Origin: Bradymonadales bacterium
Lineage (GTDB): Bacteria; Myxococcota_A; Bradymonadia; JAFGEP01
DNA length: 64,000 bases
Assembly: GCA_016931535.1 (NCBI GenBank)
Contig: JAFGEP010000096.1
Coordinates: 104,091-168,090 of the forward strand
Direction of reading: 5' to 3'
Part shown: positions 5,150 to 45,375 of the stretch, one piece after another
Layout: each line of letters opens with the position of its first letter
Position numbering within the stretch: the stretch's first letter is position 1
Made by a program: the position numbers and the translations under genes
Notes under the pieces: model-generated
Told to the model about the DNA's origin: nothing
What the model saw: only the letters and a program-made list of their open reading frames with translations
Databases searched by the model: none

Positions 5150-5473
5150 ATGCCTGCAGCAGGTCGTCTCGCAGATCTAGCCAAAGCGGATCCTCATGCC
5201 CATTGCTGTCCCGCCTGCCCTCATCCCACAGTGGGTCCCTTGATCCTTGGCTCGCCCGATGTGTTCATCAATAACATGCCAGCGGGGCGAAAGACGGATA
5301 TGGGCATCCATGCCGCCTGCTGTGGACCCAACATCTGGATGGCGGACGCCGGAAGCGGCACCGTGTTCATCAACGGGAAGGCCGCCTTCCGCAAGGACGA
5401 TGCCACCAAGCATTGTGGAAGCTTCGCTGGCAAGCTGATCCAGGGCAGCCCCGACGTGATCGTCGGCGATTGA
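5150..5473 (+). CDS. PAAR-domain protein (PAAR_motif/DUF4150-like spike-tip protein)
   Basis: 107 aa with repeated PAAR-type segments: MPAAGR...GSPDVFINNMPAGR...DMGIHAACCGPN...GSGTVFINGKAAFR...HCGSFAGKLIQGSPDVIVG. The paired CC/C metal-site residues are present. Confidence 0.8.
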   Translation: MPAAGRLADLAKADPHAHCCPACPHPTVGPLILGSPDVFINNMPAGRKTDMGIHAACCGPNIWMADAGSGTVFINGKAAFRKDDATKHCGSFAGKLIQGSPDVIVGD

Positions 5474-31163: not shown

Positions 31164-34100
31164 TTGAATGGAATTATGACTTTACTACCCACTACCAGCA
31201 ATGGCCCCCTCCGAGCAGTACCCCCATCGGTTCAGCAAACGACCTTGGGTTTGAAAGCACCACCGCACCAGCAGGAGCTGGAGAGCCTGAGACAGCTCCG
31301 GGCGGAGGTGACAGAAGGCAAGACAGGCCGGGCAGCCATCCTGATCGGCCCCGGCGGCACAGCTGGGGCGGAGTTGCTGACCCAATGGAGGCAAGAGCTG
31401 CACCGCCAGCGGGAGCCGGTGTTCGAGGCGGACTGTTACCCTGGCGGGAGTGCCTACGCCCCTCTGGTCGAGGTGATGGCGCGTTACGTGCGGGTGGTCG
31501 AGAACCTGGGGTTGATGGACGCTGCGTTGGGTCAGCTTTACAGCCAGGTGGGCAAAGATCTGGGTGTTGTGCGGCTGGTGTCGGCCGAGCGGGGCCCTGC
31601 GGGCCCCCGGCGGGAAGGGGACGAGCTGCGGTTTTACGAGAGGCTGGGAGAGCTGTTCTCGCGATTGAGCGAGAAGGTCTCCGGCGTGATCCTGATCCGG
31701 GATCTTCACCTGGCGGATGCTGCGACGCGAGCGGCGGTCCAGTACTTGCTGCGCTTCGTGGTGACCGACCCCTTTTCCGGGGTCTCCCAAGCCCCATCGG
31801 GGTCGGTCTCTTTCGTGGGGCTATTTGCGGTATCGCTGGCGGAAGGGGAACCGTTGCTGGCCAACCTGCGAGAGCACCTCGATGGGCGACAGGGGGTTCG
31901 GTTCATCGACCTGACCGATGCCACCGAGGAGTCGGTGCGGCGGTTTTTGAGCAGTCCGGAGGTGATCCAGCGGTTTCTGGATTCGACGGGTGGAGATGCG
32001 ATCCACTTGGAGTCGCTGGTAGAGTCGCTTCCCCACAACGTCGAGGATCTGTACCTGCGGCGCTGCGAGCAGCTTTCCTCGCAGGAGAGGGAGGTGCTGG
32101 AGGGTCTTGCGGTCTGTGGCAAGCCCATTGCGCCCGACCTGTTGCTGCTGCTTTTGGGGCTGGAGTCCTGTGCGGTCATCCTGAACGACCTCATCCAGAA
32201 GCGGGTGATCGTGCGCCGGGTGCAACGGGGGCAGCTATTGATCGATCTGCCCTCGCAGGGGAATCGGCAGGTGATCTACCACCGGCTCGATCCAGCCAGG
32301 CGTGCTCGGCTGCACGGTCGGTACGCCGGGATACTCAGGCAGAGGGCCCGATTTGGTGATTCGCCGGATGTGGCGGAGCTGGCTCGTCACTACCTGAGGG
32401 GCGAGCATCCCCAGGAGGCGATCGAGACCTCTCTGCTGGCGGCTGAGCGGCTTCACATGACCTTTGCTTACGAGCAGGCGATCGAACTGCTGGAGGCCGC
32501 CTTGCCGTTGACGGCTGGGGGGAAGGACCGCCAGGCGGTGCTGGAACGGCTGGTCGACCTGTACGGCTGCCGGCACGAGCATCGACGGGCGTTGTACTAC
32601 TGCGGACTGCTGAAGAAAGAGGTGAGGCCCACCGACCGGGGGGTGCTTTTTCGGCGGACGGCCGAGTTCTTGCTCCAACTGGGCAGCTACCGGAGCGCCC
32701 TGCGCTTGTTGGAAAAGGCGGAGCAGGCGTTCGAATCGACAGGGGATGCGGCCGATCGTCAAGAGGAGCGCATCCGGATCGCTGCCATCGCTGCCGAGGC
32801 CCTCTATGGGCTGGGGCAGCACGACCGGGTGGTCCGGGAGTGCCAGGCGGGTTTGGGCCGGGTCCTCGGTTCGACTCAGGCCGAGGTGTTGCGCCAGGCG
32901 ATCCGGCTGAACAACACACTGGGCAAGGTGTACCTCCAGCAGGAAGAGTATGACAGGGCCATCGCGGTCTTTCGCCAGAATCTGGAGCAAGCCCAGGAGC
33001 AGGGGTGGTCGGAGGAGGCGGTCCGGGCCCGCTTCAACCTGGGTACCGTGGCGCTTTCCCAGCGGGACTATGAACGGGCGGAGGAGCTCCTGTCGTCCTG
33101 CCTGGTTTCCGACGAGGGCGAGGTCAGCCCGGTTATCCGTGCCTTCATCCAGATGAACCTGGCGGTGGCTTATCACAAGACCAACCGTTACGCCCGGGCC
33201 CTTGATTCCTACCTGCTCAGCCTGTCCACCTTCTCCCGGTCGGGCAACGAGCTGCAGTACGCGGTGGCGGCCATGAACCTGGGGGCGCTGTACGAGCTTC
33301 TAGGAGATCTGGGACGGGCGCGCGAGCTGGTAGGGCACAGCTTGAAGATCATGCAAGCACGGGGCATGCGCTACTACGAAGGCTGGGCCAGCTACGTGCT
33401 GGGAAGCATCGCGCTGGAGGAGGGACAGCTCGGGGAGGCCCGGGCATGTCTGGCGCATGCTCTACAGGTCATGTCCCAACAGGGTTCGGAGACCTGGGTG
33501 CAGCGCATCCAGGTGCGCCTATGTCGGCTGGATCTCCAGGCCGGCGAGGTCGCCGGTTGCCGGGCTCGGCTATCGGCTCTGGTACAGGCCGGTACGACCC
33601 GGGAAGAGCGCGAGATCGAGGCGGAGGCCCATCAAAGTCTGGGACAGGCCCTGATCGCTTCCGGCCAGACCGAAGCCGGGCTTTCGGAGCTGATGAGGGC
33701 CCGCAATCTGGCCGAAGAGGTCGAGGCCCAGGACCGGCTATGGCGGATCGATCTCCGTCTGGCGGAGCAGTACCAGCGCGACGGCCGGTCCGGTGAGGCG
33801 ATCGCCAGGCTGCAGGCTGCCGCCTCCCTGATCCACAAGGTGGCGGAGCAGCTGCCGCCCGGCGTCGAGTCGGTGTTTCTGGGTACCCCAGAGCGACAGC
33901 GGGTGTTTCAGCTATTGGAGGAGATCCGATCCAGCCGGCATCGGCCGGCGCCGATCACCAAGCAGATGGCGCTGCCGCAGGGTCGTGACTTTGCGGTCTG
34001 GCGTAAGCGTTATGGCCGGATGGTCGGGGACGACCGCAAGCTGCTGCAGATTTTCCGGATGATCGACCGGATCGCCGATAGCGGCTCCACGGTCTTGATC

Positions 34101-35165
34101 CAGGGGGAGAGCGGCACCGGTAAGGAGCTGATCGCAGAGGCGATCCACAACAACAGCTCCCGACGGGACCAGCCGTTCGTGAAGGTCAACTGCGCAGCCT
34201 TCGTGGAGACGTTGCTGCTCTCCGAGCTGTTCGGCCATGAAAAGGGCGCCTTCACCGGTGCCCTGAGCCGCAAGAAGGGCCGATTCGAGCTGGCCGATGG
34301 CGGCACCCTGTTTCTGGACGAGATCGGGGATATCTCGCAAAACACCCAGATCGCCCTGCTGCGCGTCCTGCAAGAGCGGACCTTCGAGCGGGTAGGAGGG
34401 GGCGAGCCGATCGCGGTGAATGTCCGGGTCATCGTGGCTACCAATCAGGCGATCGAGGAGATGGTCAAGCGGGGGGAGTTCCGGCTGGATCTGTACTACC
34501 GGCTCAAAGGTGTGATCGTCGAGCTCCCCCCCTTGCGATCCCGGCGCGGAGATATCGCGCCGTTGCTGAACCATTTCACCGCGCTTTGCCAGCCGGCGGG
34601 CCAGGGCAAGCGTTTTTCCTTCGAGGCCTTGGAGTACCTGACCCGCTACAGCTGGCCGGGCAACGTTCGCGAGCTGGAGAACTTTGCCCGAAGCATCTCG
34701 CTGTTTGTGGATGAGCCGGTCATCGACCTGCATCACATCCTGCAGTTCGAGGAGTTCTTCGATGACGGGGAGAGGATCGAGGAGCTGCCCGAGGATCTCC
34801 TGGCGGGGCTGCGGGAAGCGAGCCGATCACCAGAGGGATGCCGGATGGAGCAGGTCTGGTCCGCACAGCCATCGGAGCCGCCCCACCCCGACGAACCGGT
34901 GCCGATCGGAGCACAGGACGGCGGTTCGGTGGGCAGCGCGATGATGGTCTGGGCCAGAAACGAGGGGTTGGGCCTGCCCGAGCTGCGGCGGTGGATCGAG
35001 CTGGAGTACATCAAGCGGGCTCTGGCGGAGACGGGAGGGAATGTCACCCAGGCGGCGAAGCTTCTGGATATGAAGCGACCGCGGTTGAGTCAGATCATCA
35101 ACGGGACAGCCGAGCTGTCCGAGCTCAGGGACAAGCTGACCTCAACCGGGGAGGAAGGCACATGA
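31164..35165 (+). CDS. Giant sigma-54-dependent transcriptional activator with a degenerate NTPase-like/TPR N-terminal region and a Fis-type HTH
   Basis: Sigma-54 AAA+ core [15 protein letters not shown]...[13 protein letters not shown]...[10 protein letters not shown]...GNVRELEN. C-terminal [22 protein letters not shown]. The N-terminal 900 aa has a P-loop-like [15 protein letters not shown] that lacks the Walker Lys, plus many TPR-like repeats. Confidence 0.8.
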
Positions 35166-36052
35166 AAACGGTCATCACAACCTTCATCCCGATTTTGTTG
35201 CTGCTGGGCACCTTGTCGGGGTGCGCCCTGCTACAGGACGACCCCGCCGGCAGCCAGGAGGCGCCGGGCAACATTCCCCTGGGGGAGCAGACGGTCGCGC
35301 TGCAATCCGTGTTCGTGCTGGCCGAGCTGGACAGACTTCCCCCCGAGGTGCACCTCGAGGATCTGTACCTGGGGGTGGGAGCGATCTTCTTCGAGCCCAC
35401 CGATGGAAGCGATGCCGGTTTTGCCTATGCCAACCGTGACCCGTTCGCGCTGCACTTCCAGATCGACCAGGGAGAGATCCGGGCCGTTGCCCCGACGATC
35501 ATCCTTCCGGAGGGAGGAGAGTTCCAGATCTCGGTCCAGCTGGAGCCGCAACGCCTGCTGGCGCAACATCCCGGATCCGCGCTCTACTCGGCTCCCGAGG
35601 AGACCGACGAGGTTTCGCTGGTCTTGACCGGCACCTACGAGAAACCCGGACGACTGCCCAAGGATCCCCTGGTGGCCACTGAGCCGGCCCCGCTCCCATG
35701 GCGTCCGCAGCCCAACGAATCGCGGGACCTGCAAAGCGAGAGCAAGTCGGCCGAACCGGAGGAGATCCCCTTCATCTACGTCAGTGACCGCAGCGTCCGT
35801 TTTGTGCTGGGCGAGGTAGACCTGGAGAGCGGCAGTGCGGTCGAGCTGGTGATGCAGGTTCCGTTCGGGCTCTGGGTCGAGGAGAACCTGTCTCCGGCAC
35901 TCGACCGGGCCCTGGATTCCGGGTCGCCCGAGGAACGGGTAAGCGGCGATCTCAACAGCGAGATCGATCTGGATCTGTCCCGATGGCTGGAGGGACCTGA
36001 CGACGACGGACTCGACGGCCTGATCGGTGGTATCCAGGTGATCATCCGGTAG
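35162..36052 (+). CDS. Hypothetical lipoprotein, translationally coupled to the sigma-54 activator
   Basis: The ATG overlaps the upstream stop (ATGA). Lipobox LLLLGTLSGC. Confidence 0.6.
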   Translation: MKTVITTFIPILLLLGTLSGCALLQDDPAGSQEAPGNIPLGEQTVALQSVFVLAELDRLPPEVHLEDLYLGVGAIFFEPTDGSDAGFAYANRDPFALHFQIDQGEIRAVAPTIILPEGGEFQISVQLEPQRLLAQHPGSALYSAPEETDEVSLVLTGTYEKPGRLPKDPLVATEPAPLPWRPQPNESRDLQSESKSAEPEEIPFIYVSDRSVRFVLGEVDLESGSAVELVMQVPFGLWVEENLSPALDRALDSGSPEERVSGDLNSEIDLDLSRWLEGPDDDGLDGLIGGIQVIIR

Positions 36053-36265: not shown

Positions 36266-36670
36266 AGACGGTTCAGGTCGGTCGCGCGGTCGCCGGTCCT
36301 TCAGGGGATCGGAGGAAAGTCCGGGCTCCACAGGGCAGGGTGGTCGCTAACGGCGACCAGGGGCAACCTTCGGGACAGTGCCACAGAGAGCAGACGGCCG
36401 CCCGGTTTCGTGAGAAACGGCGGTCACGGTGAAAGGGTGCGGTAAGAGCGCACCGGCGTGCCGGTGACGGTACGCGCAAGGCAAACCCCACCCGGAGCAA
36501 GGCAAAGCAGAGAGGTCGGCCAGAGCGCCGAGGGGGTGGCCCGCTCCCCGTCTCTCGGGTATGCCGCTTGAGGCACCTGGCAACGGGTGCCCTAGAGGAA
36601 TGATCGCGGCGGATCGTCCGTCATTGGCCGATCCGTACAGAACCCGGCTTACAGACCGGCCTGGACCTCC
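36266..36670 (+). ncRNA. rnpB: RNase P RNA, bacterial type A
   Basis: Universally conserved blocks GGAGGAAAGTCCGGGCTCCACAGGGCAGGGTG, GTGAAAGGGTGCGGTAAGAGCGCACCG, CACCCGGAGCAAGGC and ACAGAACCCGGCTTA. A 14-bp P1 helix pairs 5' GGTTCAGGTCGGTC with 3' GACCGGCCTGGACC. The ends are good to about 10 nt. Confidence 0.92.
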
Positions 36671-36711
36671 ATCCCGGACCCTATGGGTTGACTCGGAGAT
36701 GAAAAGGCCCC

Positions 36712-37335
36712 ATGTCAGCACGCTATAGGCCACCACTGTTGCTGTTTTCCTCGCCGGTGGAGCTGTCCGCCTGCTGCGATGCCCTGAAGGAGAAATGTAG
36801 CCTGCCATTTTCGGCGGAGCGGATCGGGGTTGGCCCCCGCAACGCTCGCCACAGCACGGCCCAGCTCCTGGACACCATCGATCCGCCGAGCCTGGTGTTG
36901 GCGGTGGGAGGGGCGACCTGGCTGTTACCTGGGAAGATCCCCGCTGTTTCGATCTGGGCCCGCGAGATCAAGCGGATCGGACAGGTGACCATCCGGCCCG
37001 AGATCAACCTGAGCTCGCAGTCACTTCAGCAGTTCGCAATGTACTCGGCTCGCCTGGTCACCGTCTCCAGGCCGGTGGTCAACCGCGAGAGCGGGGCCGA
37101 TATCGCCAACGAGGTGGAAGCGGAGATGGCGGACATGGAGTCCCACTCCATCCTCTCCGAATGTGTGCGCCGCGAGGTGTCCTGTGCCGCGATCCGGGCG
37201 GTGGTGAATCGAGCAGGGGAAAACCTGTCCGAACGCTACCGGGAAGCCACCGTGTCCGCGATGAACCTCTTGGGACAATCCCTGGTCGCGATCCTGCGAT
37301 GGCACGACGCCAAAGAGATGCGCCGACTTCGCTGA
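36712..37335 (+). CDS. Phosphorylase-family-1 nucleosidase-like protein (MTA/SAH nucleosidase / futalosine-hydrolase-like)
   Basis: PNP_UDP_1-like layout: PLLLFSSPVELSAC near the N-terminus, VLAVGGATWL (GxAGG-like), C-terminal ADMESHSILSECVRREVSCAAIRAVVNRAGEN. Starts 41 nt after rnpB with an AAAGG RBS. Confidence 0.5.
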   Translation: MSARYRPPLLLFSSPVELSACCDALKEKCSLPFSAERIGVGPRNARHSTAQLLDTIDPPSLVLAVGGATWLLPGKIPAVSIWAREIKRIGQVTIRPEINLSSQSLQQFAMYSARLVTVSRPVVNRESGADIANEVEAEMADMESHSILSECVRREVSCAAIRAVVNRAGENLSERYREATVSAMNLLGQSLVAILRWHDAKEMRRLR

Positions 37336-38363
37336 TGCCGTCCGGGAGCCAGAGAACAGTGACCGACTCGACTCTTTCTGCCTGCTCGGTGGTCATCCCC
37401 ACCTACAACCGCCTCGACCGAGTGTGCCAGGCGGTAACAAGCGTGCTTCTGGGGCGACTGCCAGCCGCCGAGGTCCTGGTGATCGACGACGGAAGCCAGG
37501 ACGGTACCGCCCAGGTGTTGGCCACAAGGGGAGCTCCGGTCCGGGTGATCCGCCTGGAGCGAAATGGGGGGGTGGCCCGAGCCCGGAACCTGGGGATCAG
37601 GCTGGCGGTCCATCCCTGGATCGCGCTTTTGGACTCGGATGACCGCTGGTTGGAGGAGCACCTGGAATGCCTGGTGAAGCACCTGGCCGCCTGCCCCGAC
37701 CGGCGGGTAGTGCAATGTCGAGAGCGCTGGTTTCGGCGCGGAGCTCGCGTGGCAGCCAGGAAGCACCAGCAGCCCAGATCGGGGGATCTGTACCTGCCCT
37801 CCCTCGAGCTTTGCCTGGTCTCCTCCTCGGCCGCGCTGGTCCACAGGGACCTGTTCTTCGAGGTGGGTCTCTACGACGAGCGGCTCCCGGTGTGCGAGGA
37901 CTACGACCTCTGGTTGCGGATGGCCACAAAGACCTCCTTTGGACTGGTCGATCGCGAGACGGTGGTCAAGGACGGTCCCCGAGAGGACCAGCTCTCCCGG
38001 CGCTTCTGGGGGATGGACCGATTTCGGGTCTTTGCCCTGGTCAAGCTGTTGAGCAGCCACCTCCCGGAGCGGTGGGCCCCGCAGACCCGCCAGGTGGCGT
38101 TGCGCAAGCTGGAGGTGCTGGCCGGCGGAGCCGCAAAGCGGGATAACCCACTGGCGGTCAAGGCCTATCACCGGTGGATGGAGGCCATCCGGCAAGGCGA
38201 GGGGGGCTGCCACGGTGATCCGGACGGGAACACGACCCGGCTGCCTGCACTGCTAGAGAACGCGGGGTTCACGTGGGAGGAGCGGGCATCGGATCCGATC
38301 CTCTCGGCACTGCTGGAACCACAACCGGAGCCGGTTTGGTCGGTGGTGGCGGAATCTCGGTGA
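37334..38363 (+). CDS. Family 2 glycosyltransferase
   Basis: GT-A fold motifs SVVIPTYNRLD, VIDDGSQDGT and the DxD LLDSDD. Start overlaps the upstream stop (TGATG). Confidence 0.8.
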
Positions 38364-39370
38364 AGGAGCATCCTGTGCAACATGGCGAACAAAACGGTGG
38401 TCCGACAGGTCGGATTACCTGCCTGCCTTTACATTCGGTCGCCATCGAGGACCAACGCTACCGGATCAGCAAGGGCGGGGCGGCCGACAGCCTGCGGGAG
38501 AGTATCGGGAGATGGGGCTGTCTGACCCCTCCCGTCTGCCACCAGACCGACGGCAGTCTGGTGCCGGTTACCGGCTTCCGGCGGCTTCAGGTTTGCCGGG
38601 AGCTGTTGGGGCCGGAGGGCACGGTCGAGGTGCGGGTGATGGACTCGTCCACCCCTCCGGTCGACCTGCTCTCCCTGGCGGTCTGGGATACCCGGAGGGA
38701 TGGGGCGGTCAATCCGTTTCTGGTGTGCCGGACGGTGCGCCGGGCCCTCGATCTGGGGCTGGAGAGGGAGCTCATCAAGGGGCGTCTCCTGGTCGATCTG
38801 GGGCAAGAGCCCGAGGACTCGGTGATGGACCGGCACCTGAGCCTGGAGCGGATCTGTGGACCTCTGGCCGAGGCGCTGGAGAGCCGTGGAGTCTCCTTGC
38901 GCCGTGCGCTGCGGTGGGTATCCGTGGGTGACAAGGCGGGTGAGCTGCTGGCCTGGCTGGCCGAGTCGTTTCGGCTGAATGGGCGGGCGCTGCAGGAGTG
39001 GGGCGGGATGCTGGACCAGGTGGCGCGACGGGACGGGATGAGCTGGCAACAGGTGGCTGAGAGGGCGGAGCTTGTCGCGCTGGCCACAGAGCAGGATCGC
39101 CAGCTGGACCAGCGGGCACAGGCGGCATTCGGCCGCCTGTGGGCGCTGCGCTACCCGACCTGGCAGGCGGCCAAGGTGGAAGCGGAGCAGCGGGTGAAGC
39201 GGCTGGGATTGCCCGAGCGGGTGGAGGTGAGCTGGGACGAGCGGTTCGAGGAGGAGGGCTTCACCCTGTCGATCGCGGTGCGGCAACCGGAGCAGCTCCA
39301 GGCGGACCTCGAGTCGCTCCTGGAACCGGAGCGCCTGGACCGTATCGCCAAGCTGCTGGAGGCGCTGTAG
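38360..39370 (+). CDS. ParB/sulfiredoxin-like nuclease-domain protein
   Basis: N-terminal ParB-like block SVAIEDQRYRISKGG...LTPPVCHQTDGSLVPVTGFRRLQVCREL (GxRR motif). Alpha-helical C-terminal half. GTG start overlaps the GT2 stop (GTGA). Confidence 0.55.
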   Translation: MKEHPVQHGEQNGGPTGRITCLPLHSVAIEDQRYRISKGGAADSLRESIGRWGCLTPPVCHQTDGSLVPVTGFRRLQVCRELLGPEGTVEVRVMDSSTPPVDLLSLAVWDTRRDGAVNPFLVCRTVRRALDLGLERELIKGRLLVDLGQEPEDSVMDRHLSLERICGPLAEALESRGVSLRRALRWVSVGDKAGELLAWLAESFRLNGRALQEWGGMLDQVARRDGMSWQQVAERAELVALATEQDRQLDQRAQAAFGRLWALRYPTWQAAKVEAEQRVKRLGLPERVEVSWDERFEEEGFTLSIAVRQPEQLQADLESLLEPERLDRIAKLLEAL

Positions 39371-39462
39371 CCGGTCCGGGTACATGGACGGCAAGGACCA
39401 TTGCGGCGAACCGGTCCGGTTATAGGAGAGATCGGCAGCCCGATCAGGAAAGGTAGGTTTCG

Positions 39463-40629
39463 TTGAGCGGTTTCGGCTTCAAGCGGGTCACGATCGAGCG
39501 GGATGTGGCAGAGCTGCCGGTGGCTCGCAGGTGGGCGGACTATGCCCTCCAGCAGCGGTTGGAGCTGGTGTGGGCCGAGCCGCAATCCGCGGCGATCCAC
39601 CAGGGGAAAAGCCTCTACGAGGGGAAGCAGGAGGTGGTGGTATGCCGATCGAAGGGGTCGGCCATCAAGCCCTGTCGAGGTCGGGATACGCGCTGTGTTC
39701 CCTGCAACCTGCACGTGATCAACCAGACCTCCAACTGCCCTTTCAACTGCAGCTACTGCTTCCTCCAGATCTACGTGAACAACCCGGTGACCACAGTCCA
39801 CGCCGATGTGGAGGAGATGATCGACCAGGTCGAGCGCCTGCTGGCCACGCAGCCGGAGCGGCTGTTCCGGGTCACCACCGGGGATCTGGGGGACAGCCTG
39901 GCGCTCGACGAGATCTCGCTGGTCAACCGGGACCTGGTCGAACGCTTTGCCCGGACCTCCAACGGCCTGTTGGAGCTGAAGACCAAGTCCCACCGCGTGG
40001 AACCGCTGCTCGACCTGGATCATCGCGGCCGGACGGTGGTCTCCTGGTCGATGAACACACCGGAGATGATCGCCGCCGAGGAGCACCGATGCGCCAGCCT
40101 GGAAGAGCGGCTGGAGGCGGCCCGGCGGGTGGTGGAGGCGGGGTACCTGGTGGCATTCCATTTCGATCCGATGATCGTGCACGACAGCTGGCAGGAGGGG
40201 TACCCGGCGGTGGCCCGACGGATCTTCGAGACGGTTCCGGCCGGGCGGGTGGCCTGGGTCAGCCTGGGATCCTTTCGTTTCCACCCGCCGTTGCTGGAGC
40301 GGGTGGAACACCGGTTTCCCGGCAGCCGCATCACCCTGGGCGAGCTGACGCTGGCCTCGGACGGCAAGATAAGGTACTTTAAGCCGATTCGAATCGGACT
40401 GTACCAGATCCTCTGGAAGGCCATTCGAGAGGCTGGTGGCCCTGACCCGTTCGTCTACCTGTGCATGGAGCTTCCAGAGCTGTGGCGGCGGGTGGCGGGG
40501 CATGTGCCGGAGCCGGACTACGGGCTGGACTTCGAGTTTGCCTGCAGCCTGGTCCGGCGCTATCCCTGGTTGATGAAGCGGCCGCCTCGACGGGAGGCCT
40601 ACCAGGGGGCCGGTTTGCTGGGTGGTTGA
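39463..40629 (+). CDS. SPL-family (spore-photoproduct-lyase-like, COG1533) radical SAM protein
   Basis: Cx3Cx2C cluster CPFNCSYCFLQ (compare B. subtilis SplB CMGHCHYCYLQ). Probable TTG start at 39463 with a GGAAAGG RBS. Confidence 0.7.
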   Translation: MSGFGFKRVTIERDVAELPVARRWADYALQQRLELVWAEPQSAAIHQGKSLYEGKQEVVVCRSKGSAIKPCRGRDTRCVPCNLHVINQTSNCPFNCSYCFLQIYVNNPVTTVHADVEEMIDQVERLLATQPERLFRVTTGDLGDSLALDEISLVNRDLVERFARTSNGLLELKTKSHRVEPLLDLDHRGRTVVSWSMNTPEMIAAEEHRCASLEERLEAARRVVEAGYLVAFHFDPMIVHDSWQEGYPAVARRIFETVPAGRVAWVSLGSFRFHPPLLERVEHRFPGSRITLGELTLASDGKIRYFKPIRIGLYQILWKAIREAGGPDPFVYLCMELPELWRRVAGHVPEPDYGLDFEFACSLVRRYPWLMKRPPRREAYQGAGLLGG

Positions 40630-40705
40630 GGCGGGGCGCATCCTGGCGATGGGCGCTCTGTGATGGTTGGAGATGGTCAACACAGGAAACGACTAAGAGA
40701 GCAGC

Positions 40706-41242
40706 ATGACTGAGGGACGAGAGCGCAAACGTACATGGCGGGAGATCGATCAGGCCAAGGACAAGAGCTACCACCGGCGTGAGGAGAGACCCGGGACGGT
40801 GCCGGAGAAGGGCAGCCGGTCCAACAAGGCGTACAAGGCGGAGCTGGATCGGTTCTTCAACGCGGGTCAGGCCAGCCTGCGCATCAAGACCCTGATGAAG
40901 GAGACCACCAAGGATCTGCCGCTGACAGCCGAGGAGAGTCCGGAACGGATCAAGCTGGTTCGCAAGGTGCGCAGCGCGGAGACCTTCGACGAGTTCGTGA
41001 CGGCGGTGAACGAGCTGAGGGGCCAGTTCGGATTGCCTCGCGACGTGGACATCCTCTCGCGGGTGCTGGAGCACCCCAACCAACAGGTGGTCCGGGAATC
41101 GCTGAAGCTCCTCAAGGAGCTGGCCAACCGGCTATCGCTTCTCCAGCTTCGTGCGATCGAAGTCCGCCTGGATGCCCTGGAGCTGAGCACCGACGATCCC
41201 GAGACCCTGTCAGACCTGGACGAGCTGCGCAACCTGATCTGA
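40706..41242 (+). CDS. Hypothetical protein with a basic N-terminus, Glu/Leu-rich
   Basis: 178-aa ORF inside the same-strand cluster. No recognisable domain. Confidence 0.45.
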   Translation: MTEGRERKRTWREIDQAKDKSYHRREERPGTVPEKGSRSNKAYKAELDRFFNAGQASLRIKTLMKETTKDLPLTAEESPERIKLVRKVRSAETFDEFVTAVNELRGQFGLPRDVDILSRVLEHPNQQVVRESLKLLKELANRLSLLQLRAIEVRLDALELSTDDPETLSDLDELRNLI

Positions 41243-41358
41243 GCGGGAGCGGGGACCAGGCAGCCGGGCAGTTCGAACCCGATCCCGGCCACCAGCAAGC
41301 GACATCGGATCCGACCCGGCTCGAAAGCAGCCGCCCGCATCGATGGAAAGGAGAGCGA

Positions 41359-42477
41359 GTGAACCAGAAGACGAAGGATGATCGGGAGTCCCGGGCAGCC
41401 CAACCCGGTCGGACCGCCGTATCCGATCTCCGGCCGGGAGAGCGGGTCACGACGACGCTGTTGACTCTGGACAAGCAGGCTCTGGTGACCCGCACGGGAG
41501 CACCCTACCTCAGCCTTCTATTGGGCGACCGCAGCGGGCAGGTGAACGCCAAGGTCTGGGAGAAGGCGGAGTTGTACGAGCAGAGCGTGGACTCGGGAGA
41601 CATCATCCGGGTGGATGCTCACGTGGAGACCTACAAGGGACAGGTACAGCTCCGGGTCGTCCACCTGGAGCGGGCGGCGCTCGATGGGATCGACATCGGC
41701 GAGTTTCTTCCCGCCTCCCGATTTGACCGGGGACAGATGATGTCGGAGCTGAGACAGCTGGTGGCCCGGGAGCTGAACGATCCGGATGTGCGCAGGGTGC
41801 TGCTGGCGGTGCTCGGCAACCAGGAGGTCGCCCAAGGGCTTCTGCGGGCGCCGGCCGCCAAGCTGAACCATCACGCCTACATCGGCGGTCTGTTGGAGCA
41901 CACCCTGAGCATGTGCCGGCTGGCCCAGCAGATCGCTCGCCACTACGCCCGGCAGTACCCCAACCTGCTCGACACCGATCTGCTGGTCGCCGGGGCGGTG
42001 CTTCACGACATCGGCAAGATCTGGGAGCTGTCCAGCGAGCCACACATCGACCTCACCGATGCCGGCCGCCTGCTGGGACACATCCCGTTGGCGGTGGCGC
42101 TGCTCGACCGCGTCTTGAAGAGCCTCGACCTGGAGGACACCGCGCTGGCGCTGCGGCTCAAGCACATGATCTTGAGCCACCACGGGGAGTACGAGTACGG
42201 CGCGGTGGTCCTGCCCCAGACGCCCGAAGCCCAGGTGCTGCACTACCTGGACCAGGTCGATGCCAAGCTGAACATGTTCGCCGATGCCATCGAGCGGACC
42301 GAGGGAAGCTGGTCCGCCTACGTCAAGCCGCTGGGCCATTTCGTCTACGCCGGAAACCGGCCCCAGGGAGATGCCGGCAACCCGGCCGAGGATGGCGCCG
42401 GCGGGGAGGACTCCCGCTCCACCTCCGGGAAGACGCTGGACCTGTTCGCGCCGCCCAAGACAACGGCCGAGGGGTGA
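41359..42477 (+). CDS. OB-fold + HD-domain phosphohydrolase, YhaM-like 3'-5' exonuclease family
   Basis: N-terminal OB-fold (LLTLDKQALVTRTGAPYLSLLLGDRSGQVNAKVWE), then HD motifs LNHHAYIGGLLEHTL...AVLHDIGK...LSHHGE. GTG start. Confidence 0.7.
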   Translation: MNQKTKDDRESRAAQPGRTAVSDLRPGERVTTTLLTLDKQALVTRTGAPYLSLLLGDRSGQVNAKVWEKAELYEQSVDSGDIIRVDAHVETYKGQVQLRVVHLERAALDGIDIGEFLPASRFDRGQMMSELRQLVARELNDPDVRRVLLAVLGNQEVAQGLLRAPAAKLNHHAYIGGLLEHTLSMCRLAQQIARHYARQYPNLLDTDLLVAGAVLHDIGKIWELSSEPHIDLTDAGRLLGHIPLAVALLDRVLKSLDLEDTALALRLKHMILSHHGEYEYGAVVLPQTPEAQVLHYLDQVDAKLNMFADAIERTEGSWSAYVKPLGHFVYAGNRPQGDAGNPAEDGAGGEDSRSTSGKTLDLFAPPKTTAEG

Positions 42478-42514
42478 GGGCACCTTGACGCGGTCCGTTC
42501 CCCCTCGCCCGCGC

Positions 42515-42955
42515 GAGCGTGAGCGCCTGAGCGCCTGAGCGCGAGCGTGAGCGACTGAGCGTGAACGTGAGCGGGACCGCCTGATCGTAAACCTGATCGG
42601 GATCGTGATCGATGTGGGCCCCAGTGGTCGAAGCCCCTGTCCTGCAGCCGCTCGTCGGCTTCGCCTTCCGAGCCCTTCGGGCTCGGGCTCGCGCTGCAGG
42701 GCAGTGTCTTCTCCCTCTGCCGTCGCACCAGGCAACACCCTGCGTGCCCATCGAGCCAGCCGTGAGCGTGAGCGCTTGAGCGCCTGAGCGTGAGCGTGAC
42801 CGTGTACTGGCCAGGGTCGTTCTCGTTCACGTTCAGGTTCACGTCAACGTCAACGTCAACGCCACGATCGTGAACCTGACCCTGATCGTGACCGGCTGAG
42901 CGGGAGCGTGAGCGCCTGACCGAGCGCGATCGCGAACGACTACCAGGCGTGGGGT
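42515..42955. repeat. Degenerate 6-nt-period tandem/inverted repeat array (GAGCGY / CTGAGC / GTGAAC units and their reverse complements)
   Basis: Runs such as gagcgtgagcgcctgagcgcctgagcgcgagcgtgagcgactgagcgtgaacgtgagcg and the inverted cgttcacgttcaggttcacgtcaacgtcaacgtcaac. A GC hairpin ccgagccc-ttc-gggctcgg sits in the centre. Non-coding. Confidence 0.7.
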
Positions 42956-43039
42956 TTCATCATGCCCGCGACCACGACCCGCTGCCGGTTGACACTGGCG
43001 GAGGGGAATGGTAGATGCCCGCTGGATGAAGGGGGGGGT

Positions 43040-43112
43040 GCCAACGTAGCTCAGTCGGCAGAGCAGCGCACTCGTAATGCGCAGGTCCCCGGTTCGAATC
43101 CGGGCGTTGGCT
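43040..43112 (+). tRNA. tRNA-Thr (anticodon CGT)
   Basis: Hand-folded cloverleaf: acceptor GCCAACG/CGTTGGC, D-stem GCTC/GAGC, anticodon stem GCGCA/TGCGC with loop CTCGTAA, T-arm CCCGG-TTCGAAT-CCGGG, discriminator T. 73 nt, no encoded CCA. Confidence 0.9.
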
Positions 43113-43233: not shown

Positions 43234-45375
43234 CTACTCCAGGCTTCGCGGGGGTCTTCGCCGGGTGGTTTGCTGGCGGGGAGGTTCCTGGGGCGGCTCT
43301 TCCTGTTGCGTTGGCTGTTCCTCTTCCAGCTGGGCTGGGGGCTGCTGCTCGTCGGCAGCTGCCTGTTGGCGTGTCTGCTGGGCCCGAGAGTTGCACTCGT
43401 GGAGGGGGGCCAGGTAGCGCCTGCGCAGGGCAGGGGAGATCTGGCGCATCTGGACGATGGCCTCGTCGGCGGCGCGGCAACGGTTGTTGTCGAGGGCGGC
43501 TTCAGCCGTGGCGATGAGCTCGCGGGCGCGGATGAGGTTACGGGCGACCTGCAGGTTCAGCTCCTGGTCCTCGGGGGTTTCCAGCAGCGCTCTCACCGTG
43601 GCCAGCTTTTGAGCCGCCGAGTCCACGTTGGCTGCGTTCAGCAGGAGCGCGGCCTGTCCAGCGAGGCCGGCGGCCTGTACCAGCTTGAAGGGCTGGTCGG
43701 GAAGAGGGGCAAGCTGAACCTGGGGGACGACGTTGGCACCGGTGGCGGTGGCCAGGAGATCCGTGGCGGTGCGATCGGTGCCTGGCGCGGATGCGGCCGA
43801 CGGTTGTGCGGAGTCCAGGATGGCCAGGAGGGTTGCCGCGGTCGGCTGACCGGGGGGTTGTGTTCCCTCCGGGACGGCTCCGCTGCCGTCGAGTGCTCCA
43901 GCGGTTGCTGCAAGGGTTGCCTGGCCGCCGGGGTCGGGCGTCTCGGCGGGAGCATCCTCGCGATCGGCGAACAGGAGGAAGTAGAGGGCGAGACCGCCAC
44001 CGACCAGGAGCAGCACTACCCACCATGCCGAGGAAACGTGGAATCTCTTGAGGCCGGCCGGCGAGAACTCCATGGGATCGACGTCGATGATCTTCCCCAT
44101 GGGGCTCTCTGCCTCGTCACCCCACGAGTACTCCTCCTCTTCTTTGTGGACGGGGGCCGGACCGAAGGAGAAGTCGGGTTCGGCATGAGCGGAGAGGGGA
44201 GATATCGGCTGGCCGGTGAGCGCTTGCTCCCATTCGCCGCTGCCTTTTTGGGGAGCCTTGAGCTCCAGGGTCTGTTCTTCAGCCAGGCGGGCGTTGGCCG
44301 CCTTGACCTCGTCCGGCTCGGTGGTCGAGCCGCGCAGTGAGCTGGAGCGCGAAGGACCGGTGGACTTGGCGGGAAGGTCGGGGAGCCTGGGGGTGATCTC
44401 CTCCAGGCGCGAGAGCACGTCGAGGGCGTTGGCAGGACGGGCTGAAGGCTCCTTTTGCAGGCATTTCTGGACCAGTCGAACCAGGTCTCCGGGGAGGTCA
44501 TCTCGCTCGAACAGCGCCTCCATGGGAGGGGGGTCCTTGATCTGGCGCTGGATGAGACGGGCGCGGTTCTTGTCTTCGAAGGGGGGGTGACCGGAGAGCA
44601 TGAAGAACAAGATGCAGCCCAAGGAGTAGGTGTCGGTGGCGAAGCTGACATCGAGCCCCTGGGCCTGTTCGGGCGACATGTACTCGGGGGTGCCGAAGAC
44701 CGCTCCGGTCTGGGTCAGTCGGCACTCGCCGTCATCGAGAATCTTGGCGATACCGAAGTCGATGACATTGGCGGTGTAGCGTTCGCCGGGACCTTCGGAG
44801 ACCAGGATGTTGTCCGGTTTGAGGTCCCGGTGGACGACCTGCTCGGCATGAGCGGCGGCCAGGACCTCGGCGATCTGGATGCCGAGTCGGAGGGCCAGGG
44901 CTGGGGGGAGCACGGTGTGCTCCTGGACCAGGTCGGTCAGGGAGATGCCTTCGATGAACTGGGTGACCAGGTAGAGGGTTCCGTCGTTCAGGCGTCCGAA
45001 ATCGAGCAGGGTGACGGCGTTGGGGTGCTTGACCCGGCTGTGTGTGCGGGCCTCGTTGAAGAAGCGGGCGACCAGCTTCTCGTCGGTGGCGAACTTGCGG
45101 TGGAGGAGCTTGACCGCGACCCTCTGGGGCAACGTCTCGTGCTCCGCGATGTAGACCTCGCCCATACCGCCTTCGGCGATCCGCTTCTTGATCCGGTATC
45201 GTCCGGCCACCATCTGTCCCAGGTAGGGGTCGGATCGGCTGTTCTCTTTGAATGCCGCCTTGCCGCAGAAGCCACAGTAGCGTGCGCCCAGGTCGAGCTG
45301 GGATCCGCAATGGGGGCAGGTGATGGTGGCCCTGGTCTCTTCCATGAACAAGCGCTCGAGAGTTCGCGGTTCCAT
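43234..45375 (-). CDS. Ser/Thr protein kinase with an N-terminal zinc ribbon and a C-terminal TM + Pro/Gln-rich extracytoplasmic region
   Basis: Zn ribbon CPHCGSQLDLGARYCGFCG. Hanks motifs GGMGEVY, VAVK, HRDLKPDNIL, DFG and GTPEYMSPE. One TM helix (WWVVLLLVGGGLALYFLLF). Confidence 0.85.
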   Translation of the reverse strand: MEPRTLERLFMEETRATITCPHCGSQLDLGARYCGFCGKAAFKENSRSDPYLGQMVAGRYRIKKRIAEGGMGEVYIAEHETLPQRVAVKLLHRKFATDEKLVARFFNEARTHSRVKHPNAVTLLDFGRLNDGTLYLVTQFIEGISLTDLVQEHTVLPPALALRLGIQIAEVLAAAHAEQVVHRDLKPDNILVSEGPGERYTANVIDFGIAKILDDGECRLTQTGAVFGTPEYMSPEQAQGLDVSFATDTYSLGCILFFMLSGHPPFEDKNRARLIQRQIKDPPPMEALFERDDLPGDLVRLVQKCLQKEPSARPANALDVLSRLEEITPRLPDLPAKSTGPSRSSSLRGSTTEPDEVKAANARLAEEQTLELKAPQKGSGEWEQALTGQPISPLSAHAEPDFSFGPAPVHKEEEEYSWGDEAESPMGKIIDVDPMEFSPAGLKRFHVSSAWWVVLLLVGGGLALYFLLFADREDAPAETPDPGGQATLAATAGALDGSGAVPEGTQPPGQPTAATLLAILDSAQPSAASAPGTDRTATDLLATATGANVVPQVQLAPLPDQPFKLVQAAGLAGQAALLLNAANVDSAAQKLATVRALLETPEDQELNLQVARNLIRARELIATAEAALDNNRCRAADEAIVQMRQISPALRRRYLAPLHECNSRAQQTRQQAAADEQQPPAQLEEEQPTQQEEPPQEPPRQQTTRRRPPRSLE

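Follow-up and report, generated by a model that had tools for sequence, protein, structure and literature searches.

The spore photoproduct lyase (SPL) family of radical S-adenosylmethionine (SAM) enzymes has one characterised cellular function, the repair of spore DNA. The SPL-like subfamily considered here is nonetheless encoded in no fewer than 585 species-level genomes that do not belong to spore formers. HpnH/HpnG and MqnE/MqnB are pairs in which radical-SAM adenosylation is combined with a dedicated nucleosidase that removes the base, and in the hopanoid pathway a reductase and a family-2 glycosyltransferase (GT2) likewise follow. In the 7-deazaguanine DNA system, DpdB is needed by DpdA. 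A phage thymine dioxygenase depends on a ParB-like activator for its action on double-stranded DNA (PMC13229309), and the SPL-like radical SAM enzyme gp53 of phage M6 remodels a DNA base (PMC8989533). Here we describe four consecutive genes, G1 to G4, within a 64-kb stretch of DNA from a Bradymonadales metagenome-assembled genome (MAG); this whole stretch is termed the window, and its positions serve as coordinates. The genes encode a nucleosidase (G1), a GT2 (G2), a ParB-type protein (G3, also called X) and an SPL-fold radical SAM enzyme (G4). They form one operon of a conserved, uncharacterised radical-SAM pathway that occurs in many phyla, and the four-gene module is a member of no characterised system.

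Gene neighbourhoods were compared first in ten loci of six proteins homologous to G4 and then in 80 loci, with one genome per Genome Taxonomy Database species. Loci were found through an SPL alignment and scanned with profiles of the window genes, and their flanking open reading frames (ORFs) were clustered. Annotation used stop-to-stop ORFs and purpose-built profiles, and the resulting counts are threshold-dependent; the 80-locus samples comprise the best-scoring matches and are mostly MAGs. Enough upstream sequence for evaluation was present in 74 of the 80 loci, and in 53 of these a ParB-like gene of the same orientation lies directly 5' of the SPL-like gene. The carriers of this pair include Marinimicrobia, Nitrospirota, Thermodesulfobacteriota, Acidobacteriota, Margulisbacteria, KSB1, Deferribacteres and an actinomycete MAG, among others. 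An orthologous GT2 gene, scored at 250-290 bits with a profile of three Bradymonadales sequences, immediately precedes the ParB-like gene in 23 of 49 loci. About ten of these loci encode a nucleosidase::GT2 fusion ORF (~500 aa, nucleosidase domain N-terminal), confirmed by gene calls and Pfam in L008 and L038, and seven loci, the window included, have the nucleosidase gene separately, just 5' of the GT2 gene. The SPL-like gene is followed by an aldo-keto reductase (AKR) gene in nine loci and by a short-chain dehydrogenase/reductase (SDR) gene in four to five.

The reciprocal search, in which an alignment of the GT2 subfamily was run against metagenome contigs, returned 80 orthologue loci at 320-450 bits. 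Two gene orders are apparent among them. About 14 loci have the order (nucleosidase)-GT2-ParB-like-SPL-(AKR/SDR/racemase), where brackets mark variable members. In about 19 others, which we call class B, the GT2 gene is followed by genes for a 284-aa protein, a distant SPL-family enzyme and an SDR or AKR, and the ParB-like gene is absent (for example L093, L096, L101, L109, L120, L124, L126, L130, L135, L136, L141, L147, L156, L158 and L167). The 284-aa protein is a homologue of the module nucleosidase (hhalign 97.7%, E 1.3e-12; DMEA and vSDN motifs); against the ParB-like family its hhalign probability is <1%. The class-B SPL relative (~340 aa, motif NCxYDCRYCFLQG) is without the four extra cysteines, the D-G-K-x-R-Y segment and the C-terminal tail of the G4 subfamily described below. 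Acyl-CoA dehydrogenase, alcohol dehydrogenase, HemN-like, EngB, GH20 and SSF genes flank the class-B loci; they provide no functional clue and look like lineage synteny. The remaining reciprocal loci are mostly short contigs.

Since the triad is seen again and again, in two gene orders and with a fusion, there is strong evidence that the nucleosidase, the GT2 and the SPL-type radical SAM enzyme are functionally linked, and the ParB-like protein is specific to the SPL-like subfamily of the window. An earlier, first-pass annotation of the window had proposed six genes as an uncharacterised, functionally linked set plausibly acting on nucleic acid. The notion of such a set holds, and its extent contracts to four genes, the other two accompanying the module in Bradymonadales only. 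The recurrence of GT2, ParB-like and SPL-like genes that had been set as a check is likewise borne out in other phyla, without the HD-domain gene that had been counted with them. The literature searched contains no description of the gene set, and a survey of the ParB fold mentions neither radical SAM nor glycosyltransferase partners (PMC12704722).

In those loci of the 80-locus sample that have no ParB-like gene, the SPL-like gene stands in housekeeping contexts. In six Marinimicrobia-type loci (L026, L027, L043, L047, L050 and L057) the end of dnaE lies within a few bases of its start, and in SAR324 ribF comes before it and a Lon-domain gene, dsbA and hldE come after it. Other arrangements were also observed. 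In the gammaproteobacterial locus L008 (4998-12143, plus strand), genes for an MMPL transporter, the nucleosidase::GT2 fusion, the ParB-like protein, the SPL-like enzyme and an AKR are tightly packed. A variant seen in L095, L104, L110, L115, L159 and L170 has a ParB-like ORF of ~190 aa, then the SPL-like gene, then a gene of the Asp/Glu racemase family. A SprT-like metalloprotease gene, of a family linked to DNA-protein cross-link repair, is convergent and just 3' of the SPL-like gene in L029, L031, L036, L038, L044, L053, L058 and L070; these loci are mostly from Nitrospirota or Thermodesulfovibrionia, and the arrangement may be lineage synteny.

The radical SAM enzyme G4, whose sequence occurs with 100% identity in a Bradymonadales MAG, shares the full-length fold of SPL. 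Its AlphaFold 2 (AF2) model (mean predicted local distance difference test score, pLDDT, 84.5) matches PDB entry 4fhc over the whole chain in Foldseek (E 9e-23, TM 0.72/0.81), the next radical SAM enzyme following at 1e-5. G4 scores 109 bits against PF20903 (SPL) and carries the motif CPFNCSYCFLQ. Against TIGR04070, the equivalog model of spore photoproduct lyase (SplB), it reaches 121 bits versus a cut-off of 400, and against the SPL-family model TIGR03886 58.8 bits versus 437.55. We compared 84 homologues residue by residue, with positions mapped by a hidden Markov model (HMM) alignment to 4rh0, the Geobacillus thermodenitrificans enzyme. The radical SAM CxxxCxxC cysteines (C92, C96 and C99) are invariant, and the cluster motif with Tyr96 (CxxxCxYC) and the SAM contacts S196 and R272 are retained from SPL. 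In SPL, Cys140 is the hydrogen-atom donor of the Bacillus type, and Arg193 and Glu268 contact the lesion bases (PMC3467042). These three residues and Tyr98 are all exchanged in the G4 family: the Cys140 position holds Glu/Asp (E, D or Q in 84/84), Tyr98 becomes Ile or Phe, Arg193 Ser or Ala, and Glu268 Ser. Conversely, four further cysteines (C71, C80, C81 and C334) are essentially invariant among the 84 homologues, which suggests an auxiliary metal site that SPL lacks. C71 and C80/C81 (C78/C81 in the window) fall 11-21 residues N-terminal of the cluster motif, and one of them might correspond to the alternative hydrogen donor of clostridial SPLs, a Cys at the Ser76 position in the beta3'-beta4' loop. 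An identification of G4 as spore photoproduct lyase is ruled out by the score of 121 versus 400 bits, the missing Cys140, Tyr98 and Arg193, and the four extra cysteines.

A second mark of the family is the segment D300-G-K302-x-R304-Y305-x-K-P-x-R310, in which D300, K302, R304, Y305 and R310 are invariant in 84/84. In an ungapped extension of the HMM alignment it falls where SPL has the Arg304/Tyr305 hairpin and Lys309. This correspondence is one of spacing only, as the C-terminal 109 aa of G4, searched alone against the PDB, gave no sequence match. Beyond the end of SPL, G4 continues for ~50 aa, and in the 84-homologue census this extension shows no correlation with the presence of a ParB-like gene. 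The company kept by G4 also departs from that of SPL: its homologues are found in Marinimicrobia, Nitrospirota, Acidobacteriota, Thermodesulfobacteriota, SAR324 and others rather than in endospore formers, and have ParB-like, GT2 and nucleosidase partners. Many of the lineages concerned are anaerobic and non-sporulating. Phage M6 gp53, an SPL-like radical SAM isomerase that acts on a modified DNA base within multi-enzyme thymidine hypermodification (PMC8989533), offers a parallel; it differs in being viral and only remotely similar, with a kinase and a pyridoxal-phosphate enzyme as partners. No relatives of G4 were found in the 2.9 million contigs of IMG/VR, and the best relatives in phage records have only ~23% identity, so that close G4 relatives are missing from the phage collections. 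Plasmid matches were limited to genuine splB of Bacillus and to SPL-family proteins whose identity did not exceed 30%.

G3 has no Pfam match, ParB_N staying under threshold, and family profiles and models were more informative. A profile of seven G3 family sequences retrieves ParB/Spo0J/Noc structures from the PDB (Spo0J 1vz0, E 3.9e-14), and one of 54 sequences retrieves Myxococcus xanthus ParB (MxParB) at E 1.5e-25, spanning the N-domain and the helix-turn-helix (HTH). The AF2 model (pLDDT 76) has Noc, ParB and KorB as its top fold matches at probability 1.0. On profile and model evidence together, G3 is thus solidly a genuine ParB/Noc-type protein, predicted to consist of an N-terminal ParB nucleotide-binding domain, an HTH domain and a family-specific C-terminal region. 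The alignment to ParB/Noc across the HTH covers profile positions ~107-227, where the G3 model is helical with pLDDT 85-95. In MxParB, Gln52 and Glu93 of the GERR motif serve CTP hydrolysis, and other residues bind phosphate (PMC13229309). The G3 family retains equivalents of the phosphate-binding Arg54, Arg95 and Asn127, with G72 and R75 invariant, and has replaced the hydrolysis residues, with Arg or another residue at the Gln position and an aromatic at the Glu position (G-F/W-x-R, or GFxR, versus GERR). An exhaustive profile search places 904 clusters at 50% identity in the family (E<=1e-30), nearly all of ~320 aa; the three proteins returned by a word-indexed homologue search with G3 are so few because the family evolves fast. 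No parA gene adjoins G3 in the window.

DpdA/DpdB resembles the module in that a ParB-fold protein is encoded beside an enzyme acting on bases of double-stranded DNA. A second parallel is that of the phage thymine dioxygenases (5mYOX), where the ParB-fold protein is both encoded beside, and needed by, the base enzyme (PMC13229309). In these systems too, glycosyltransferases and tailoring enzymes are often nearby and the nucleoside triphosphate (NTP)-binding residues are conserved. In the module, by contrast, the partner is an oxygen-sensitive radical SAM enzyme and not an iron/2-oxoglutarate dioxygenase or a TGT. Moreover, phage ParB-like proteins are without the HTH that G3 possesses, and the module is chromosomal and absent from viral contigs.

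The two remaining proteins supply the presumptive tailoring steps. G1 belongs to the PNP_UDP_1 superfamily, scoring 22 bits against PF01048, slightly under the cut-off of 25.1. Its best NCBIfam match is HpnG (TIGR03468; 33.6 bits versus 187.1), and the nucleosidase domain of the L008 fusion scores 47.5 bits against the same model; the MTAN model gives G1 16.5 bits versus 169. An assignment to MqnB and the futalosine pathway, which would have set the nucleosidase apart from its neighbours, is ruled out by a score of 29.1 bits versus 124.7 (TIGR03664) and by the lack of futalosine genes nearby. G1 is 42-43% identical to the genes at the same position in L001 and L004 and aligns with its relatives around the GxG, N-x-G-T/S-x-G, DME and (S/T)D motifs. 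With an E. coli MTAN sequence as alignment guide, the catalytic DME (ribose-binding Glu) and (S/T)D (general-acid Asp) appear to be kept in most nucleosidase domains. G2 scores 102.2 bits against PF00535 (GT2; cut-off 23.3) and stays under every NCBIfam equivalog cut-off, with MftF (82 bits), EpsD (74 bits) and an arsenosugar glycosyltransferase (63 bits) at the top. Its sequences define a distinct, tightly conserved subfamily with the invariant motifs DDxS, DSDD-W, E-W-R-G-RVNP, CEDYD-W and DQLS; with DSDD and CEDYD invariant, the DxD of the GT-A domain is represented in G2.

How might these four proteins act together? The reading to which we tentatively lean, at well short of even confidence, is that the radical SAM enzyme modifies DNA with the help of the ParB-type protein and that the adduct then loses adenine and is glycosylated. 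Substrate and chemistry we infer; the gene composition, the conservation, the fusions and the residue patterns were observed directly. In such a scheme the ParB-type protein, with its NTP-phosphate-binding residues and HTH kept and its hydrolysis residues lost, would bind DNA and position or activate the SPL-fold enzyme. The latter would flip out a pyrimidine and turn the 5'-deoxyadenosyl radical on the base rather than splitting spore photoproduct, the most likely outcome being an adenosine-derived C-C adduct. A loop cysteine may quench the radical, and the four extra cysteines would bind the auxiliary metal site. A pathway-specific MTAN-like nucleosidase would then strip off adenine, in parallel to HpnG after HpnH and MqnB after MqnE, and the GT2, together with a reductase in other genomes, could elaborate the remaining sugar. 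The presumed end product is a sugar-bearing base in chromosomal DNA.

We favour a DNA target because G4 has the SPL fold and the invariant R-Y segment and because X is a ParB/Noc homologue with an HTH. The only characterised relatives, SPL and M6 gp53, act on DNA, and a ParB-fold protein activates a DNA base-modifying enzyme (PMC13229309). The adjoining dnaE in the six X-less loci was counted on the same side. An adenosine-derived intermediate is suggested because the nucleosidase is pathway-specific, has MTAN-type motifs and is fused to the next enzyme. For the last reason, clearance of 5'-deoxyadenosine as a by-product, the role given to the nucleosidase in the first-pass annotation, is disfavoured, as it does not explain repeated fusion to the GT2. 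It is possible, if doubtful, that in a range of mainly anaerobic bacteria the whole amounts to a chromosomal, oxygen-independent hypermodification of DNA: a ParB-type NTP switch would guide an SPL-fold enzyme with an auxiliary Fe-S site, possibly adenosylating a pyrimidine, and the nucleosidase, reductase and GT2 would yield a sugar- or polyol-bearing base.

Several observations weigh against DNA as the substrate or against this division of labour. Class B combines nucleosidase, GT2 and SPL-family enzyme in the absence of a ParB-like gene, so no DNA-binding partner is indispensable to the triad, and in around half of the X-SPL loci neither a GT2 gene nor a nucleosidase gene is close by. AKR, SDR and racemase genes beside a module are what one expects of small-molecule pathways, and neighbours connected with lipids or isoprenoids also occur: MMPL in L008, UbiB in L001 and L004, and an IspH-UbiA fusion in seven loci. 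We know of no SPL-family enzyme that transfers an adenosyl group. The predicted G4 hairpin is short (strands 295-297 and 303-305), so that it can be equated only tentatively with the tip of the SPL hairpin. The window proteins have peculiarities of their own. With the same MTAN guide, G1 has the DME motif and an Asn in place of the catalytic Asp (RAVVNRAG, residue ~167); in G3, residues 115 and 121 are Gly and Leu, where the 'ENLxxR...E' box of ParB has a near-invariant Arg and Glu. G4 carries C78-x-P-C81 where the family has CC, and it is the sole homologue of 84 with Pro at C80 and the sole one with Cys at 78. Because three module proteins deviate at conserved positions, the window copy may work somewhat differently from the family norm.

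These observations lend themselves to the principal rival explanation, in which the module is a hopanoid-like small-molecule or isoprenoid-lipid pathway; we regard this as a serious contender, although on balance a doubtful one. Here the SPL-fold enzyme would put the 5'-deoxyadenosyl radical on an alkene within a lipid or metabolite, the HpnG-like enzyme would remove adenine, an AKR or SDR would reduce the ribose to a polyol and the GT2 would glycosylate it, leaving the ParB-like protein as a regulator or an NTP-using accessory enzyme, as in SbnI and SerK. HpnH, HpnG and the GT2-family HpnI act in this order, and the progression from radical SAM enzyme to MTAN-family nucleosidase to reductase and GT2 is the likeness that the module bears to the Hpn and, for the first two steps, MqnE/MqnB systems. 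That HpnG is the top NCBIfam match of the nucleosidase domain, that class B keeps the trio without a ParB-like gene, and that at least 13 loci have an AKR or SDR gene downstream all fit. So do the genes directly upstream: MMPL, UbiB and, 5' of seven GT2 orthologues including those of L094, L099, L100, L103, L155 and L160, the IspH (LytB)-UbiA fusion. The fusion is full length in L094, L099 and L160, and no SPL-like gene follows on the listed contigs. However, each of these lipid hints is limited to one lineage, no membrane-associated domain was detected in the GT2, and all Hpn-family scores are far under their cut-offs, as are those of the Mqn models. The radical SAM enzyme belongs to another structural family, with the SPL fold and not that of HpnH, MqnE or ArsS, and the gene most closely tied to it, with 53 of 74 loci, encodes a ParB homologue that retains its HTH and has no counterpart in the Hpn and Mqn systems. 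The annotated surroundings of the module include neither a squalene-hopene cyclase gene nor mqn genes. The isoelectric points (pI) of the proteins did not discriminate between DNA and small-molecule targets.

Retaining DNA as the target, one could instead envisage direct-reversal repair: the ParB-like protein would scan DNA and recruit an SPL-like lyase that splits a spore-photoproduct-like methylene-bridged or other radical-induced intrastrand cross-link formed under anoxia in non-sporulating anaerobes, and the nucleosidase and GT2 would be passengers or would clear 5'-deoxyadenosine. The full-length SPL fold is in keeping with this, as are conserved cysteines that would lie in the loop which holds the 3'-thymine in SPL and which is the source of the hydrogen-donor Cys in clostridial SPLs. 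The gene is chromosomal, in housekeeping contexts, often solitary or beside dnaE, and absent from viral contigs, and many carriers are anaerobes. We nonetheless judge repair unlikely. The residues with which SPL contacts bases are all replaced (R193 by S/A, E268 by S, C140 by E/D and Y98 by I/F), the four additional invariant cysteines point to a second metal site and to chemistry of another kind, and a recurrent, coupled and sometimes fused nucleosidase-GT2 together with reductases would go unexplained. The more specific suggestion of spore-DNA repair, made in the first-pass annotation, fares worse still in a Bradymonadales MAG whose module is shared with non-sporulating phyla and whose SPL-like enzyme fails the SPL cut-off and is missing both the catalytic and the lesion-binding residues.

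A sugar-bearing modified nucleoside in tRNA or rRNA seems improbable to us as the product. The Bradymonadales module lies between rnpB and a tRNA-Thr gene and near a YhaM-like RNase, and the GT2-family enzyme B3GNTL1/QTGAL glycosylates queuosine in eukaryotic tRNA; these RNA-gene and RNase neighbours are, however, confined to Bradymonadales, ParB-type HTH proteins bind DNA, and the SPL-family precedents act on DNA. Least credible of all, and very improbable in our estimation, is the view of all six genes as an island for phage defence or DNA modification-restriction that was inserted at an RNA-gene hotspot, or else as a myxospore DNA-repair locus: although ParB-like proteins occur in Dnd and Dpd systems and G6 has weak Cas3-HD similarity (E ~1e-5 to 1e-4 in PADLOC-DB 2.0), G1-G5 have no significant match in that database (for G4 only pVip, at E 0.034), no integrase, nuclease or restriction partner is present, composition is flat, the rnpB-to-tRNA synteny is kept in relatives, G5 and G6 are unlinked to the module outside one order, viral relatives are missing from IMG/VR, and the family is widespread in non-sporulating phyla.

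The features of the locus are collected in Table 1. The gene calls and family assignments of the first-pass annotation (nucleosidase, GT2, ParB-like, SPL-type and OB-HD) proved right, as did its layout, with rnpB, six same-strand genes, a hexamer-repeat spacer and tRNA-Thr(CGT), and a kinase gene on the opposite strand beyond the tRNA. The G+C content is even across the region, at 0.64-0.68, in agreement with the composition like that of the surroundings already remarked upon. The distance from rnpB to G1 is 44 nt. Of the two gene overlaps reported earlier, GTGA is present at the G2/G3 junction, and the supposed ATGA is in fact TGATG, a 1-nt overlap between G1 and G2. The gaps G3-G4, G4-G5 and G5-G6 measure 92, 76 and 116 nt; G1-G4 (36712-40629) are accordingly joined by translational coupling or close spacing.

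Table 1. Features of the module and its surroundings (window positions unless another locus is named)
Feature	Position	Strand	Remarks
rnpB (RNase P RNA, class A)	36274-36667	+	287 bits
G1, MTAN/HpnG-like nucleosidase or phosphorylase, PNP_UDP_1 superfamily, 207 aa	36712-37335	+	module gene 1
G2, family-2 glycosyltransferase (GT2), 342 aa	37335-38363	+	module gene 2
G3 (X), ParB/Noc/KorB-type protein, 336 aa	38360-39370	+	module gene 3
G4, SPL-fold radical SAM enzyme, 388 aa	39463-40629	+	module gene 4
G5, charged 178-aa protein, no family	40706-41242	+	neighbour, outside module
G6, YhaM-like OB-fold + HD phosphohydrolase, 372 aa	41359-42477	+	neighbour, outside module
Spacer with degenerate TGAGCG-type hexamer repeats, 562 nt	42478-43039		G6 to tRNA
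tRNA-Thr(CGT)	43040-43112	+	downstream flank
Ser/Thr kinase gene	43234-45375	-	Pkinase match 1.5e-47
Extra genes of relative L001	5899-7350 and 11265-14274 (L001)		absent from window
Extra genes of relative L004	1393-2838 and 6652-9730 (L004)		absent from window

The position of the cluster between two RNA genes had been likened to the sites at which genomic islands often integrate, with the reservation that no integrase is present. The Bradymonadales relatives L001, L004 and L011 likewise have rnpB upstream and a tRNA gene downstream, and the whole rnpB-to-tRNA block is syntenic among relatives at 40-55% protein identity. Because rnpB and a tRNA gene are shared in this way, the RNA-gene flanks represent inherited synteny and not an integration site. 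Inside the block, the relatives have a UbiB kinase gene between rnpB and the nucleosidase gene and, between the SPL-like gene and G5, genes for a homologue of the alpha subunit of thiamine-dependent E1 dehydrogenases and for two unknown proteins (~510-530 and 100-110 aa); all four are absent from the window.

G5 and G6 are neighbours only and unrelated to the module. They co-occur with it in only four Bradymonadales loci, the window, L001, L004 and L011, and in each of the latter three the G5 homologue immediately precedes the YhaM-like gene and stands at a distance of three genes from the SPL-like gene. G5, once described as basic, is highly charged with a pI of 7.9, and gave nothing significant against Pfam, NCBIfam or PADLOC (best E 0.02-0.045). 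G6 resembles the 3'-5' exoribonuclease YhaM in its OB-fold and HD architecture (tRNA_anti-codon (OB) 32.8 bits, HD 52.6 bits) and aligns with NF010007 over nearly its full length, although at 215.6 bits versus a cut-off of 460.

The spacer behind G6 carries its hexamers in three degenerate blocks (~42511-42611, 42761-42861 and 42873-42942), and 10/12 of the GAGCGTGAGCG matches of the whole window lie inside it, versus 2.8 by chance. The array looks like an insertion or expansion, because the gap from the G6 homologue to the tRNA gene is only ~115 nt in L001 and ~180 nt in L004, too short to hold such an array. Hexamers of the CGTGAG/ACGTCA types and several imperfect inverted repeats are also present in the spacer. 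Further out, the region 31164-36052 upstream of rnpB encodes a 1333-aa sigma-54 activator (AAA_16, TPR) and a 291-aa protein without a family, both syntenic in relatives, and beyond the kinase gene an 897-aa ORF without a Pfam match occupies 45642-48338 on the minus strand. In L001 a match to the Acido-Lenti-1 small RNA (49.7 bits versus a gathering score of 37) is found just 5' of rnpB, at 5357-5402; the window has none at the gathering threshold.

The recurrent coupling of SPL-like genes to this module, together with the fusions between nucleosidase and glycosyltransferase, gives a testable handle on the function of a large group of enzymes within the SPL family. Should the target be a lipid or a metabolite, the module would represent a second, non-hopanoid use of the logic of adenosylation, deadenination and glycosylation. 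Should it be DNA, cellular genomes would build complex bases by radical chemistry without oxygen, and ParB-fold proteins would be seen to activate DNA-modifying enzymes on bacterial chromosomes as well as in phages, with an enzyme set of possible use in DNA labelling. If true, cellular (non-phage) DNA would have its first glycosylated base initiated by radical SAM chemistry, and the ParB fold would acquire a new role.

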